Of a stretch of DNA of 29,971 nt, positions 3,136-25,962 are shown piece after piece. This stretch comes from Alphaproteobacteria bacterium. GTDB lineage: Bacteria > Pseudomonadota > Alphaproteobacteria > Rhodobacterales > Rhodobacteraceae. Made by a program: the position numbers and the translations under genes. Where the stretch lies: positions 1 through 29,971 of the forward strand of contig JAADIC010000155.1 in assembly GCA_013151535.1 (NCBI GenBank). The letters are read 5' to 3'. Within the stretch, counting starts at the first letter, position 1; each line of letters opens with the position of its first letter. The notes under the pieces are model-generated. The model was not told the DNA's origin. It ran no database searches and saw only the letters and a program-made list of their open reading frames with translations.

Positions 3136-4439
3136 CTTTCGCCAAACACCCGCGCAAAGATCGTATCCACATGCTTGGTGTGATAGGCGGTGTCGAATTT
3201 GTCCCTGATCTCGGCCTCGCTCAAGGCGGCGGTAACGTCGGTATCGGCAAGCAATTCGCTCATGAAATCCTTGCCCTGTTGCCAGACTTTCATGGCATTG
3301 CGCTGGACCAGTTTGTAAGCATCCTCGCGGCTTACACCGGCCTGGGTCAGGGCCAGAAGCACCCGCTGGCTCATCACCAGACCACGGAATTTATTCATGT
3401 TTGCCAGCATGTTATCCGGATAGATCACCAGCTTGTCGACCAGACCCGTCAAACGCGCCAGCGCGAAATCAAGGATGATGGTGGTGTCAGGGCCGATATT
3501 GCGCTCCACGGATGAATGCGAAATGTCACGCTCATGCCAAAGCGCCACATTCTCCATTGCCGGCACCACAGACATCCGCACGAGGCGCGCCAGACCTGTC
3601 AGATTTTCGCTGAGAACCGGGTTGCGTTTATGCGGCATGGCGGAGGAGCCTTTTTGGCCTTTGGAGAAAAACTCCTCGGCCTCAAGCACCTCGGTGCGCT
3701 GCATATGGCGGATTTCGGTGGCGATGTTTTCGATGCTTGACCCCACGACACCAAGGGCTGCGAAAAACGCCGCATGACGGTCGCGCGGAATGACCTGTGT
3801 GCTGATCGGTTCCGGTTCCAGCCCCAGCTTGGCGCAAACATGTTCCTCGACCTTGGGGTCAATATTGGCAAACGTGCCGACAGCACCAGAAATCGCGCCG
3901 GTGGCAATCTCGGCCCGCGCGGTTTTCAGACGGGTCAGATTTCGATCCATCTCGGCGTAAAACCGGGCGAAAGTCAGGCCCATGGTGGTTGGTTCGGCGT
4001 GAATGCCGTGCGAGCGCCCGATGCGCACGGTCATTTTATGTTCAAGGGCGCGGCGTTTGAGGGCAGCCAGCAAGGCCTCAATATCGGCGATCAGAATGTC
4101 GCTGGCGCGCACCAGTTGCACGTTGAAACAGGTGTCTAAAACGTCCGAGCTGGTCATGCCCTGATGCACGAACCGCGCCTCGTCATTGCCGATAATTTCC
4201 GCCAGATGGGTCAGGAATGCGATGACGTCATGCTTGGTCACGGCCTCGATTTCATCAATCCGGGCCACGTCAAACTCCGTATCGCGCGCCTTCCAGACGG
4301 CTTCGGCGTTTTCGCGCGGGATCACGGCCAGATCGGCCATGGCGTCACAGGCATGTGCCTCGATCTCGTACCAGATGCGAAATTTCGTGGCGGGCGACCA
4401 GATTTGAACCATCTCGGGGCGGGAATAGCGGGGGATCAT
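3132..4439 (-). CDS. purB: Adenylosuccinate lyase
   Basis: Starts MIPRYSRPEM (ATG 4439, not the ORF-track 4505). Contains TKHDVIAF, RSHGIHAEPTT and fumarase-superfamily signature GSSAMPHKRNP. Confidence 0.97.
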   Translation of the reverse strand: MIPRYSRPEMVQIWSPATKFRIWYEIEAHACDAMADLAVIPRENAEAVWKARDTEFDVARIDEIEAVTKHDVIAFLTHLAEIIGNDEARFVHQGMTSSDVLDTCFNVQLVRASDILIADIEALLAALKRRALEHKMTVRIGRSHGIHAEPTTMGLTFARFYAEMDRNLTRLKTARAEIATGAISGAVGTFANIDPKVEEHVCAKLGLEPEPISTQVIPRDRHAAFFAALGVVGSSIENIATEIRHMQRTEVLEAEEFFSKGQKGSSAMPHKRNPVLSENLTGLARLVRMSVVPAMENVALWHERDISHSSVERNIGPDTTIILDFALARLTGLVDKLVIYPDNMLANMNKFRGLVMSQRVLLALTQAGVSREDAYKLVQRNAMKVWQQGKDFMSELLADTDVTAALSEAEIRDKFDTAYHTKHVDTIFARVFGES

Positions 4440-21551: not shown

Positions 21552-22724
21552 TTAGGTGATCTTACTTTGGGCAAAGGTTGCCAGCCGCTTCAAAGCGTCC
21601 ACAAATCGGCTGTCCTCAACCGTCATCGCCACCCGAATATGGCCCGCAGCGGCTTTGCCGAAACTTTCGCCGGGCATGACGGCGATCATTTCGGCCTCCA
21701 GCAGGGCCAGCGCGAAGTCTTCGCCGCTCAAACCGGTGGCGCGGATATCGAGCATCAGATACATCGCACCGGACGAGGGCACCGTATGCAGGGCGTTCAC
21801 GCCTTTGAGTGCCTCTTGCGCCAGCGCGCGACGGCGGCGGAATACTTCGCCGACGCGTTTTTCCAGCGGATCACCCTGCTCAAGCGCGAACAGGGCGGCG
21901 GCCTGAATAAAGCCCGGCACGCCGTAGGTGGTGCAGGTCGACAGATCAATCAGCTTGGTGATGACGTCTTTCGGGGCGACGATCCAGCCAACGCGGCTGC
22001 CGGTCATGGCGTGGCTTTTGGACATGGAGCCGACCACCAGCGTGCGCTCGGCCATATGCGGCTGTGCGCGCGGTGTCAGATGTTCGCCAGTCCACACTTG
22101 TGTGTCATAAACTTCGTCTGAAATCAGCCACAGGTCATTCGCGCGCACCACATCGCAGATCATTTCGATTGTTTCGCGTGAATAAACCACACCGCTTGGA
22201 TTGTTGGGCGAATTCATCAGCAGCGACCGCGCACCCTTTGCATGCGCCTCAAGCTCGGCCCGTGTCGGTTGGAAATCGTTCTCGGGGCTGGTCTGGATCG
22301 GCAAATCAATCGCCCCTGCAGCGCGCAGAGTGCCGGGATAGGTGGCATAGTAAGGGTCAAGATAAAGCGCGGTGTCACCGGGGTTCAGCACAGCGGTATG
22401 GGTGGCAAACAGCGCCGCCTGACCGCCCGGGGTGACGATAATGTTCTCGAAACTGGTCTCAACCCCCGTGCGGGTTTGCACCCGCGTCGCAATCGCCTCG
22501 CGCAGGGGCTGCATGCCGGGCACGATGGCGTAACCGGTGTTGCCGGCCATGGCGCTGTCATACATCGCGGTCAGGATTGGTTCTTCGGTTTTGATGTCAT
22601 GCTCGCCAATCGTCAGTTCGATCACGTCCTCACCCGCATCTTTCATGGCGCGGGCTTTGTAAAACACATCCCAGCCATCGCTGCCGCCTTTGGTGATATT
22701 GGTGATCCGGTTGGAAAGTTTCAT
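21552..22724 (-). CDS. PLP-dependent aminotransferase class I/II (aspartate aminotransferase-like)
   Basis: LTIGEHD, TPGGQAALF, NSPNNPSG, LISDEVY, SMSKSHAMTGSRVGW (PLP lysine), PGESFG. Start MKLSNR at ATG 22724 behind AAGGA. Confidence 0.95.
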   Translation of the reverse strand: MKLSNRITNITKGGSDGWDVFYKARAMKDAGEDVIELTIGEHDIKTEEPILTAMYDSAMAGNTGYAIVPGMQPLREAIATRVQTRTGVETSFENIIVTPGGQAALFATHTAVLNPGDTALYLDPYYATYPGTLRAAGAIDLPIQTSPENDFQPTRAELEAHAKGARSLLMNSPNNPSGVVYSRETIEMICDVVRANDLWLISDEVYDTQVWTGEHLTPRAQPHMAERTLVVGSMSKSHAMTGSRVGWIVAPKDVITKLIDLSTCTTYGVPGFIQAAALFALEQGDPLEKRVGEVFRRRRALAQEALKGVNALHTVPSSGAMYLMLDIRATGLSGEDFALALLEAEMIAVMPGESFGKAAAGHIRVAMTVEDSRFVDALKRLATFAQSKIT

Positions 22725-22793
22725 GTGCCTGTTCCTTGATGTTATCGCGCAGACGGCATCATGATTCGGGGGCCAATGGCAAGGGGGGTGGGC

Positions 22794-22822
22794 TTGCAAA
22801 TCAGCGGGGCGGGCGATAGACG
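22794..22822 (+). promoter_or_regulatory. Predicted sigma70 promoter of the cysS-cimA operon
   Basis: TTGCAA-N17-TAGACG. The expected +1 falls at about 22829, the A of the leader-peptide ATG. Confidence 0.6.
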
Positions 22823-22828
22823 GGGCGC

Positions 22829-22873
22829 ATGAGAACCTGCACCCCCATTTGTGGCACCTGCATTATCTGCTGA
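22829..22873 (+). CDS. Putative leader peptide MRTCTPICGTCIIC (14 aa), apparently leaderless
   Basis: ATG AGA ACC TGC ACC CCC ATT TGT GGC ACC TGC ATT ATC TGC TGA. 4 Cys, 3 Ile and 3 Thr directly upstream of cysS-cimA. Below the ORF-track size cut-off. Confidence 0.75.
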   Translation: MRTCTPICGTCIIC

Positions 22874-22902
22874 AAATACTCAGCGGGCCGTTCTCTTGTT
22901 TT
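22831..22902 (+). promoter_or_regulatory. Attenuator-like RNA fold overlapping the leader peptide
   Basis: 3' arm TCAGCGG-GCC-GTTCTC (22880-22895) is complementary to CTGCTGA (22867-22873, includes the stop), GGC (22853-22855) and GAGAAC (22831-22836). It is followed by TTGTTTT (22896-22902). Confidence 0.55.
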
Positions 22903-22965
22903 CAAAACCATGACACAGTGATAGGCCTCGCCCAAGGGATTTGAGGGATAAACACGCGTGGAAAT

Positions 22966-25962
22966 ATGATGACCGAGATCAAGCTGTACAACACCAAGAC
23001 CCGCAAGAAAGAGCTGTTCACGCCACTGGATGCGAACGATGTGCGCATGTATGTCTGCGGCCCGACGGTGTATGACCGCGCCCATATCGGCAACGCGCGC
23101 CCGGTGGTGGTGTTTGACGTATTGTATCGGCTGTTGCGCCATGTGTATGAGGCGGAGCACGTCACCTATGCGCGCAATTTCACCGACGTGGATGACAAGA
23201 TCAACGCCAAGGCGGCCCAAACCGGGCGGTCTATTCGCGAGATCACGGATGAGACGATTGGCTGGTTTCTGGAAGACATGGGGGCATTGGGGGCGCTAGA
23301 GCCGGATAAGGCACCACGGGCGACCGAGTTTATTGCTGAGATGGTTGATATGATTGCGGAGCTGATTACGTCCGGCCACGCTTACGAGGCTGAAGGGCAT
23401 GTGCTGTTTGATGTGACGTCTTACGAGAAATATGGCTCACTTTCGGGCCGCTCAATCGACGATATGATCGCAGGCGCGCGGGTTGAAGTTGCGCCCTACA
23501 AACGAAATCCGATGGATTTTGTCATGTGGAAGCCGAGTGTCGGCGATCAACCGGGCTGGAAAAGCCCTTGGGGTTACGGCCGCCCGGGCTGGCATATTGA
23601 ATGTTCCGCCATGACCAAAGCGATCTTTGGCGAACGGTTCGACATCCACGGCGGCGGTCTTGATCTGGCCTTTCCGCACCACGAAAACGAAAAGGCGCAG
23701 AGCTGTTGTACGACGGGTGAGGATAGCTTTGCGCAGGTGTGGATGCATAACGAGATGTTGCAGGTTGAGGGCAAGAAAATGTCCAAGAGCTTGGGCAATT
23801 TCTTTTCGGTGCGGGAGTTGTTGTATCAGGGGGTGCCGGGCGATGTTATTAGGTTTGTGTTTTTGAGTACGCATTACCGCAAGCCGATGGACTGGACGGA
23901 GAAGAAGGCGAAGGAGGCAGAGGCGACGCTGCTAGGATGGAGAGCTTTAGTGAACTCTCAAATTGAAGACGTATCAACGGATATTGAAGGGAAAGTTCCT
24001 CCACCTGAAATAATTTGTGCGCTTGCGGACAACTTAAACACTTCATTGGCATTGAAGAATGTGAACGATTTTGCAAAAAGGGCCAAAAATGGAAGCGTTG
24101 GCGAAGCACGCGCTTTGGCCGAGGCAATGGCCTTCCTTGGGTTCGATCCATCTTGGGCGGGGGCATTTAGTGAGCTGCCGAGAATCGGAGTACCCAGCAA
24201 TTGTGACCCCAATACAATCGTTATCGTTGAGGACCTTTTGACACAAAGAAACGAAGCACGCAAAAAGGGCAATTTTAAGAGAGCGGACGCTTTAAGAGAT
24301 GGCTTCGCTGCACGCGTTTGCCGGAATGTTACGATGACCAAACAACACCTCTCCCTCTTCGACACTACCTTACGCGATGGCCAACAAACCCAAGGTGTTG
24401 ACTTCACCGCAGAAGACAAGACCCGCATCGCTTTGGCGCTCGACACACTCGGCCTTGATTATGTCGAAGGCGGCTGGCCGGGGGCGAACCCGACCGACAG
24501 CGACTTTTTCGACAATGCGCCCGCCCTCAAGACTGCCACTTTCACCGCTTTTGGCATGACAAAACGCGCCGGGCGTTCGGCGGAAAACGATGATGTGCTG
24601 GCGGCTGTTTTGAACGCCAATACCCCTGCGGTATGTCTTGTTGGCAAGACGCATGACTTTCATGTCACCACGGCGCTGGGCATCAGCTTGCCGGAAAACC
24701 TCGCCAATATCGCGCAGTCTTTCGCCCATATCAGCGCCCAAAATCGTGAGCCTTTGTTTGACGCCGAGCACTTCTTTGACGGCTACAAAGCCAATCCCGA
24801 TTACGCGCTGGAATGTCTGCACGCGGCTTATGACAACCACGCCAACTGGGTGGTTCTGTGCGATACCAATGGCGGAACCCTGCCGCATGAAATCCACGAA
24901 ATCACCAAGGCGGTGATCGCCAGCGGCATTCCGGGCGAGCATCTGGGCATTCACACCCATGATGATACCGGCCACGCCATTGCCAATTCACTGGCGGCTG
25001 TGATGGCCGGGGCGCGCCAGATTCAAGGCACGCTGAACGGGCTGGGCGAGCGCTGTGGCAACGCCAATCTTATCAGCCTGATCCCGACATTGATGTTGAA
25101 AGACCCCTCCGCCAGCCAGTTTGAAATCGGCGTGACCGAAGACGGCCTGCAATCCCTGACCAAGCTCAGCCGCATGCTCGACGACATCCTGAACCGTGTG
25201 CCCAACAAAACCACGCCCTATGTCGGGGCCAGCGCATTCGCCCATAAGGCCGGGCTGCATGCCAGTGCGATTGTCAAGGATCCCAGCACTTACGAGCATG
25301 TGGAACCCGATACGGTTGGCAATGAACGCGTTATTCCGATGTCAAATCAGGCCGGTCAGAGCAACCTGCGCCGCCGTCTGGAGGATGCTGGGATTGCGGT
25401 TGAAAAAGGCGATCAGCGGTTGGCCAATATCCTGAACGAGGTCAAAGCGCGCGAGGATCGCGGCTATGCCTATGACACCGCGCAGGCCAGTTTTGAGCTG
25501 ATCGCGCGGCGTGAGCTTGGCCTGCTGCCCGAGTTTTTCGAGGTCAAGCGTTACCGCGTCACGGTGGAGCGGCGACGCAACAAGCGCAATGAGGCTGTGA
25601 CCCTGTCCGAGGCGGTGGTGGCAGTGAAAATCGCCGGTCAAAAGGTGCTTTCGGTGTCCGACAGTCTGGATCTGAATGGCAAGGATAGCGGGCCGGTGAA
25701 CGCGTTGTCCAAGGCCCTCTCGAAAGATCTGGGGCCATATCAGGCCTGTATTGACGACATGAAACTGGTCGATTTCCGGGTGCGGATCACCGGTGGTGGC
25801 ACTGCAGCGGTGACGCGTGTTATCATCGACAGCGAGGACGGGCAGGGGCGGCGCTGGTCGACCGTGGGCGTGTCCGCGAACATCGTGGATGCCTCGTTCG
25901 AGGCGCTGCTGGATGCGATTATCTGGAAGCTGATCCGCGACGATCAAAAGGTGGCCCAATGA
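22966..25962 (+). CDS. cysS: Single 998-aa ORF: cysteine--tRNA ligase (about aa 1-456) fused in frame to citramalate synthase
   Basis: [60 protein letters not shown], then [17 protein letters not shown] continuing into MTKQHL with no stop. Start 22966 or 22969. Confidence 0.9.
24334..25962 (+). CDS. cimA: Citramalate synthase moiety (542 aa, LeuA-type), retains its own in-frame ATG
   Basis: [72 protein letters not shown]-terminal regulatory domain GPVNAL...[10 protein letters not shown]. Confidence 0.93.

Follow-up and report, generated by a model that had tools for sequence, protein, structure and literature searches.

We studied a short leader in a 29,971-nucleotide (nt) stretch of a Rhodobacteraceae genome (assembly GCA_013151535.1, contig JAADIC010000155.1), which we call the window, where it precedes the coding sequences for cysteinyl-tRNA synthetase (CysRS, gene cysS) and citramalate synthase (CimA, gene cimA). 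The leader contains an upstream open reading frame (uORF) rich in Cys and Ile codons, is enclosed in a terminator-like RNA structure and has homologues in most cysS loci of the Rhodobacterales that we collected. Our results suggest that it is a Rhodobacterales member of the uORFC-8-2 motif and a ribosome-mediated attenuator at the 5' end of the cysS-cimA transcript, a reading to which we give a probability of about 0.7. The comparison of relatives makes it very likely that the leader is translated and senses Cys, and tips the balance slightly towards Ile being sensed as well.

An initial annotation of the window had proposed that one leaderless peptide reads Cys-tRNA charging for cysS and the supply of Ile and Thr for cimA. 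The parts that it described, namely the promoter hexamers, the ATG at 22829, the 14-codon ORF, a 16-nt pairing arm, a U-rich tract and a gap of 92 nt before cysS, are all found where it had put them (Table 1). Its central idea, a leader peptide with a Cys/Ile-rich run inside a terminator-like structure, is supported by comparison across ~80 species. Its other claims fared less evenly, as described below.

Conservation, structure and start of the leader

We collected 110 cysS loci, 30 from relatives of the window genome and 80 from named Rhodobacterales, the nearest named relatives being Amylibacter and other Rhodobacteraceae. A homologous ATG-initiated ORF of 11-18 codons occupies the same place in 88 of the 110 loci (82 distinct sequences). 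This is far beyond chance. The ORF has 14 codons in 47 of the 82 distinct uORFs; seven lengths occur, all of them multiples of three, with an invariant ATG and a stop that is always in frame. Synonymous variation is found at the Cys codons (221 TGC and 44 TGT) and at the Ile codons (202 ATT, 112 ATC and 5 ATA) of the distinct uORFs, and the unpaired codon run shows a three-base periodicity. The composition of the peptide is conserved; its sequence and the spacing of its Cys residues are not. We considered a metal-binding peptide of the CxxC type and rejected it, since the Cys spacing is unconserved.

The uORF was lost in some lineages, such as the Roseovarius-like ones. Nine loci, from Roseovarius-like lineages and one Marinosulfonomonas assembly, have lost both the uORF and the hairpins and have kept the box that lies downstream of the leader; one of them (L069) is the sole Rhodobacterales locus without cimA within 2.5 kb downstream of cysS. 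Six loci of the order's sister family carry a variant leader ending in R-I-T-C-R with one or two Cys (e.g., MRATVNIIGKRITCR). This variant has no clear U tract, and its post-hairpin strand complements the cysS Shine-Dalgarno region; this suggests a leader that works on translation, possibly with a different logic.

Folded alone, the region 22829-22903 forms three helices, P1, P2 and P3, followed by the U-rich tract TTGTTTTC. Its minimum free energy (MFE) is -20.3 kcal/mol (z -2.55), and 3 of 200 shuffles folded as well. P3 was the only terminator-like site that a terminator scan returned on the plus strand. Its arms pair 22866-22873 with 22880-22887, and the 5' arm comprises the last bases of codon 13 and, after them, the final Cys codon and the TGA stop (22871-22873). 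P1 joins the strand that immediately follows P3 to the first codons, in many cases with the AUG included. The 16-nt arm of the initial annotation, said to pair back onto the start, middle and stop of the ORF, corresponds to the 3' strands of P3 and P1 (22880-22895). These strands do pair with the stop and the start, but in the MFE structure the middle of the ORF does not pair with them, and P3 and P1 are separated by two unpaired C.

Alignment of the whole leader with MAFFT followed by RNAalifold gave no consensus structure; loop lengths and the register of P1 vary. We used instead per-sequence folds, a partner-swap test and a gap-free alignment of 16 sequences. P1 was present in 78 and P3 in 71 of the 80 per-sequence folds. 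The sequence of P1 varies by lineage and yet remains complementary (GAGAAC/GUUCUC, GACC/GGUC and AUGAACAC/GUGUUCAU). In the partner-swap test, which is free of alignment, the P1 duplex had -7.84 kcal/mol with its own partner and -5.1 kcal/mol with swapped ones, and none of 2000 permutations was as good. In the gap-free alignment, 74% of the cells pair, against 42-54% with slid partners, and three P1 pairs have changed on both sides. The outer five pairs of P3 are near-invariant and its loop-proximal pairs are variable, whereas P2 consists mostly of UGCA palindromes whose register is unconserved. A cmscan of 22000-23600 with Rfam 15 gave no match, even at E <= 10.

The start of the transcript was approached by anchoring the 82 relatives on the uORF ATG, with no gaps. 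CTTG(A/G/C)C is conserved at -37 to -31 and (G)CTA at -14 to -11; C occupies position -1 in 70% of the relatives and A position +1 in 100%. There is no Shine-Dalgarno sequence before the uORF ATG, nor room for one, and a sister-family relative has TATAAT-N6-ATG. In the window, the A of the ATG at 22829 is the seventh base past the -10 hexamer of the upstream promoter (P-up), which a generic promoter scan missed because this hexamer lacks the final T. The -35 and -10 boxes at a fixed distance, with C at -1 and A at +1, would place the transcription start on the A of the ATG, and the mRNA is likely to be leaderless.

Table 1. Features of the cysS-cimA leader and operon in the window.
Feature	Position	Strand	Basis or remark
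-35-like hexamer TTGCAA of the upstream promoter (P-up)	22794..22799	+	read from sequence
-10-like hexamer TAGACG of P-up	22817..22822	+	17-nt spacer after TTGCAA
Leader ORF, 14 codons and TGA, MRTCTPICGTCIIC, probably leaderless	22829..22873	+	
Helix P1, 5' strand GAGAAC, codons 1-3	22831..22836	+	MFE fold
Hairpin P2, weak and variable, inside the Cys/Ile codon run	22838..22862	+	MFE fold, per-sequence folds
Hairpin P3	22866..22887	+	terminator scan, MFE fold, per-sequence folds
Helix P1, 3' strand GTTCTC	22890..22895	+	folds, partner swap, alignment
U-rich tract TTGTTTTC after P1	22896..22903	+	read from sequence
-35-like TTTTCA of the probable second promoter (P-down), overlapping the U tract	22899..22904	+	constant spacing to the TGnTA box
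Box TGATAGGCC(T)CGC, extended -10-like TGnTA and GCCCGC	22919..22931	+	near-invariant in relatives
CysRS part of a 998-codon ORF	22966..24333	+	PF01406; TIGR00435
Citramalate synthase (CimA) part, in frame with CysRS in the assembly	24334..25962	+	TIGR00977 equivalog

Codon content, proposed mechanism and its alternatives

The 13 codons after Met in the window ORF include 4 Cys, 3 Ile and 3 Thr. In the 82 leaders, Ile accounts for 31%, Cys for 26% and Thr for 13% of the residues, against genome backgrounds of 5.8%, 1.1% and 4.9%, respectively. Positions -4 to -9 from the stop hold nearly only Cys or Ile, in an order that interchanges between lineages, and the joint share of the two is ~80% at positions -3 to -9. 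Most uORFs have tandem Cys codons, with at most two or three adjacent and interleaved with Ile. Residues a single step away from Ile are near-absent (Leu 2.3%, Val 0.7%, Phe 0.4%, Met 0.3%). This composition fits selection for the identity of the Ile codon and not for hydrophobicity, A/U content or one particular RNA sequence.

A control was available in the same genome, where the gene for the large subunit of acetolactate synthase (ilvI) has the leader peptide MKILVVISGKRMAR (contig C78, ~4388-4432, minus strand) with a Shine-Dalgarno sequence, a CCCCC/GGGGG hairpin and a T7 tract. The ilvI leader mixes Ile, Leu and Val codons, whereas the cysS leader has Ile without the Leu/Val mix, which fits CimA being an Ile-specific enzyme. 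A search of the whole genome for further control leaders, based simply on short ORFs with a biased composition, returned out-of-frame noise inside genes only.

The Ile/Thr side of the dual input in the initial annotation split in two. The part concerning Ile found real, if indirect, support: Ile is the commonest residue; it trades places with Cys at individual positions, to the exclusion of Val, Leu and Phe; and the downstream gene is always cimA. The part concerning Thr was not supported, and we rejected sensing of Thr: its codons are located within P1 (codon 3) and P3 (codon -2), and at these sites they give way in some leaders to Pro, Ile, Asn or Arg codons, which preserve the pairing. Positions -2 and -1 read ACC/ATC/CCC and TGC/CGC because the 5' arm of P3 is formed by codon -2, codon -1 and the stop. 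The suggestion that Ile/Thr content might track linkage to cimA proved non-discriminating, as the linkage is universal among leader-bearing loci with enough downstream sequence (cimA follows cysS in 79 of 79).

The 92 nt between the uORF stop and the cysS ATG at 22966 (22874-22965) contain a further conserved signal. The box TGnTA(A/G)G(C/T)CCGC is found 17-18 nt from TTTCCA or TTTTCA in every Rhodobacterales locus, whether or not a uORF is present; one extra T makes the box of the window degenerate. This pair of -35 and extended -10 is probably a second promoter (P-down), which looks constitutive, with a start ~30 nt before cysS. The genome-wide count of TGnTA..CCGC is not enriched (17 against ~44 in shuffles); this is therefore not a general promoter type. 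The GCCCGC of the box is also the exact complement of the GCGGGC in the 3' arm of P3, and a role as an RNA pairing partner, beside or instead of the promoter, is possible.

We propose the following model. Transcription from P-up would start on the AUG of the 14-codon ORF, and a pioneer 70S ribosome would load on this free 5' AUG while transcription goes on. A ribosome that completes translation to the UGA and leaves would allow P1 and P3 to fold into a junction with the U-rich tract behind it, and the junction would end or silence the transcript and also bury the AUG. When charged tRNA-Cys is scarce, the ribosome would stall in the run of codons 5-14 and cover the 5' strand of P1 (codons 5-8) or that of P3 (later codons); the junction would be blocked and RNA polymerase would read on into cysS-cimA. 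Scarcity of charged tRNA-Ile would plausibly lead to the same read-through, as Ile codons equal Cys codons, and such a response would match cimA, the opener of the citramalate route to isoleucine. The second and probably constitutive promoter would supply the basal level of the essential cysS. We see an even chance that the whole scheme is right, i.e., that one leaderless peptide reads the charging of both tRNAs in a cross-pathway attenuator with an AUG-sequestering junction, over a constitutive downstream promoter. Within it, the dual Cys/Ile input and the AUG-pairing leaderless design are plausible refinements with good comparative support. Intrinsic termination at 22896-22903 accounts for the output about as well as its competitors taken together, and the initial annotation was right that sequence does not settle the output step between intrinsic termination, Rho and translation.

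Several observations weigh against this model. Some bear on the sensing of Ile: ATT is nearly fixed at position -3 (72 of 82), which hints at some constraint at the nucleotide level; all 16 stand-alone cimA genes from other alphaproteobacterial families lack an Ile-rich leader; no Cys/Ile uORF was found in 14 further families of the class that have cysS-cimA; and the Ile count is alike in leaders of overlapping (4.1) and spaced (3.9) cysS-cimA pairs. Others bear on the output. The U content is weak, with a mean of 4.7 U in the 9 nt past the last pair and a longest run of usually 3-4 among 80 relatives, and the U tract of the cysS leader falls short of the T7 in the terminator of the ilvI leader. 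The tract also overlaps the -35-like hexamer of the second promoter, which uORF-less relatives keep as well. The per-sequence folds contain no antiterminator helix upstream of the U tract, the sole competitor for the 3' arm of P3 being downstream of the tract; the model therefore leans on direct occlusion by the ribosome and on an assumed pausing of RNA polymerase. Finally, the public runs that we searched include no RNA run with the locus (one run, of unstated type, had 13% of the sampled words), and we infer the transcription start, the 3' end and translation.

The first alternative to consider is that the attenuator senses Cys only, that Ile codons are kept for another reason (they might space the Cys codons, keep the RNA between P1 and P3 weak and rich in A/U, provide the UGCA palindromes of P2 or give the nascent peptide some property) and that cimA is carried along in an old operon. 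This account is possible, although we find it doubtful. The published model requires just Cys, the near-fixed ATT at -3 and the Cys-Ile junctions that yield the UGCA palindromes of P2 would follow naturally, stand-alone cimA genes do without an Ile leader, and the leader is much younger than the cysS-cimA pair, which occurs in 14 of 30 alphaproteobacterial families, none of these 14 having the uORF. Yet a need for A/U-rich RNA or for hydrophobicity would admit Asn, Lys, Phe, Tyr, Leu and Val, all of which are almost absent. Ile and Cys also exchange freely, with their joint share at positions -3 to -9 being maintained. The branched-chain amino acid leader of the same genome is filled by its cognate codons, and not by Ile by default. 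The mycobacterial Cys leaders that we discuss below are described as polycysteine tracts. These are not known to contain Ile codons.

A somewhat less probable account, which we regard as unlikely, is that the leader acts mainly after transcription. The GCGGGC of the P3 arm would pair either with the end of the uORF or with the GCCCGC ~40 nt downstream, and a stalled ribosome would rewire the 5' untranslated region and change cysS translation or mRNA stability. Both hexamers are near-invariant and exactly complementary, of the four sequences in which the first hexamer reads GCGGAC, three show GTCCGC in the second, and several full-length MFE folds use this pairing. The weakness of the U tract, the complementarity of the sister-family strand to the Shine-Dalgarno region and the mycobacterial precedent, reported as sequestration of a ribosome-binding site, point the same way. 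However, the box is found at a fixed, promoter-like spacing in uORF-less relatives and is thus conserved without the leader, it lies 27-63 nt from the cysS start without the Shine-Dalgarno being covered in the window's family, and the four compensatory sequences are close kin. We found no conserved helix over the cysS Shine-Dalgarno in the Rhodobacterales family of the window. It is much less probable that the leader is a separate short transcription unit, for a small RNA or a small protein, with cysS-cimA expressed from the downstream promoter only and without regulatory read-through. Such a unit would be closed by the terminator-like structure, and the -35 and extended -10 pair between leader and cysS is present in all relatives, including uORF-less ones; but the element occurs only upstream of cysS, in the published motif as in our 110 loci, its codons match the two downstream genes, it is the composition and not the peptide sequence or the Cys spacing that is conserved, and the terminator is weak. 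Finally, the conservation of P1 and P3 and the lack of a Shine-Dalgarno before the ATG could be taken to mean that the ORF is untranslated, its frame incidental to a structured non-coding RNA or a protein-binding site. This we find barely credible given the invariant ATG, the in-frame stop across seven lengths, the synonymous changes at Cys and Ile codons and the periodicity of the unpaired codon run; moreover, no Rfam family matches, even at E <= 10.

Relation to known leaders

The motif uORFC-8-2 has 145 examples, which its description places only upstream of cysS in Rhodobacterales, and was predicted, on bioinformatic evidence only, to respond to tRNA-Cys charging through ribosome-mediated attenuation (Brewer et al. 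2021, RNA Biol 18:2417, PMC8632094). The leader of the window shares with this description the place upstream of cysS, the order, a conserved AUG-initiated uORF, Cys codons with dominant UGC and some UGU, Cys-containing stems (P2 and P3 here), an occasional three-stem junction and a 3' U run. It is a member of the published motif, and its core was already known. The claim of the initial annotation that no Cys-sensing leader of cysS is described does not hold, the motif having been published in 2021. Some traits set our observations apart from the published ones. The motif section of that paper and the legend of its Figure 5 mention neither Ile codons, nor cimA, nor a leaderless start, nor the downstream promoter. 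In the same description the third stem is rare and without covariation, whereas here P1 is found in 78 of 80 folds with matched partners, and tandem Cys codons are given at positions 14-15, against ~8-11 of a 13-14-codon ORF here. The motif is not in Rfam 15. Full-text literature searches (citramalate synthase with cysS; cysS leader or uORF) returned no paper linking cimA or isoleucine to the leader. The locus adds a member to a published prediction and is not a discovery; only the Ile half would be new.

Leader peptides with codons for more than one amino acid are well known. The ThrL and ilv leaders of E. coli are examples of multivalent attenuation, where shortage of either amino acid relieves termination. 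The cysS leader has in common with them that one peptide carries codons for several amino acids. In these systems, however, the sensed amino acids all belong to the regulated pathway, translation starts from a Shine-Dalgarno sequence and the decision is made between 1:2, 2:3 and 3:4 helices; here, two inputs would serve two unrelated genes, one for an aminoacyl-tRNA synthetase and the other for an enzyme of another amino acid, from a probably leaderless start and with no antiterminator found. The pheST operon of E. coli, with its leader peptide pheM, is an aminoacyl-tRNA synthetase operon under a leader peptide rich in the cognate codon. The cysS leader resembles it in this respect, and differs in that pheST responds to one amino acid only, through a leadered mRNA with classical alternative hairpins. 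Compared with attenuators of the trp, thr and his type, the leader has the enrichment in regulatory codons and shows, in its per-sequence folds, no conserved, mutually exclusive 2:3 antiterminator. An ilvIH leader of alphaproteobacteria was reportedly predicted by Vitreschak et al. in 2004; like the cysS leader, a leader-peptide attenuator of this kind is found in the genome of the window, with the differences that it has a Shine-Dalgarno sequence, an Ile/Leu/Val mix and a canonical strong terminator.

Leaderless short ORFs with polycysteine tracts are also described in mycobacteria, where, according to the preprint's account, ribosomes that stall upon Cys limitation increase downstream operon expression at loci of cysteine metabolism, the demonstrated mechanism being that a sequestered ribosome-binding site is set free (Canestrari et al. 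2020, bioRxiv 10.1101/834739). The leader of the window would share with them a leaderless short ORF with Cys codons. The mycobacterial Cys tracts, as presented there, are uninterrupted, whereas here Cys and Ile codons are interleaved, the target is cysS-cimA and the structure is terminator-like. The likeness is one of analogy, as the phyla are unrelated.

In the usual view, an attenuator senses amino acids of the very pathway under its control. If real, a leader that combines signals from two unrelated amino acids to serve two unrelated genes would widen this picture. It would also help to explain the neighbourhood of cysS and cimA in 14 of the 30 alphaproteobacterial families sampled, and would reveal how the main isoleucine route is controlled in the abundant marine Roseobacter group. 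The putative leaderless start, paired into a terminator junction, suggests a design in which one ribosome makes one decision. The leader family is large, short and easily recoded, and thus convenient for the study of leaderless attenuation outside actinobacteria.

The cysS-cimA pair and neighbouring loci

The CysRS part scored 449 bits against the TIGR00435 cut-off of 340 (profile positions 1-449 of 466), and the CimA part, with HMGL-like, HCS_D2 and LeuA_dimer domains, scored 583.5 bits against the TIGR00977 cut-off of 450. In a class-wide sample, 14 of 30 alphaproteobacterial families have cimA immediately after cysS, and the stop codon of the first gene often overlaps the start codon of the second. 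By this comparison the pair predates the leader and is an old, unexplained one. The overlap of the cysS stop with the cimA start has the form ATGA in ~22 loci; the other cysS-cimA spacers measure 40-600 nt, and a terminator-like hairpin was found in only 3 of the 48 longer ones. In Roseobacter denitrificans, ~80% of isoleucine is made via citramalate (PMC2749216). A search for threonine dehydratase in the window genome, which is 84% complete, returned paralogues, none above the equivalog cut-offs.

The window departs from its relatives in that CysRS and citramalate synthase form a single in-frame ORF (22966-25962), where the relatives have two separate genes. The C-terminal tail that CysRS has in relatives is missing from this ORF, and the usual ATGA overlap (24334-24337) is out of frame. 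Two more fused proteins were found in Rhodobacteraceae metagenome assemblies, with 867 amino acids (63% identity) and 790 amino acids (57%). The fusion may be real rather than an assembly error; all three cases come from data of the metagenome-assembled type. On the other side of the leader, the divergent upstream neighbour (21552-22724, minus strand) encodes a class I/II aminotransferase.

The cysS loci of other alphaproteobacterial families (L141-L154) have upstream of cysS a different conserved element, (A/G)TGGACC-N(10-12)-ATCTG(C/T)TACC. In some families it falls inside the upstream gene, at its 3' end, and we take the C-terminal peptide of this gene to be GltX-like by eye, no family-library scan having been made; elsewhere the same element is intergenic, after an apparent nadE-like gene. 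From its conservation upstream of cysS, it looks like a conserved cysS promoter.

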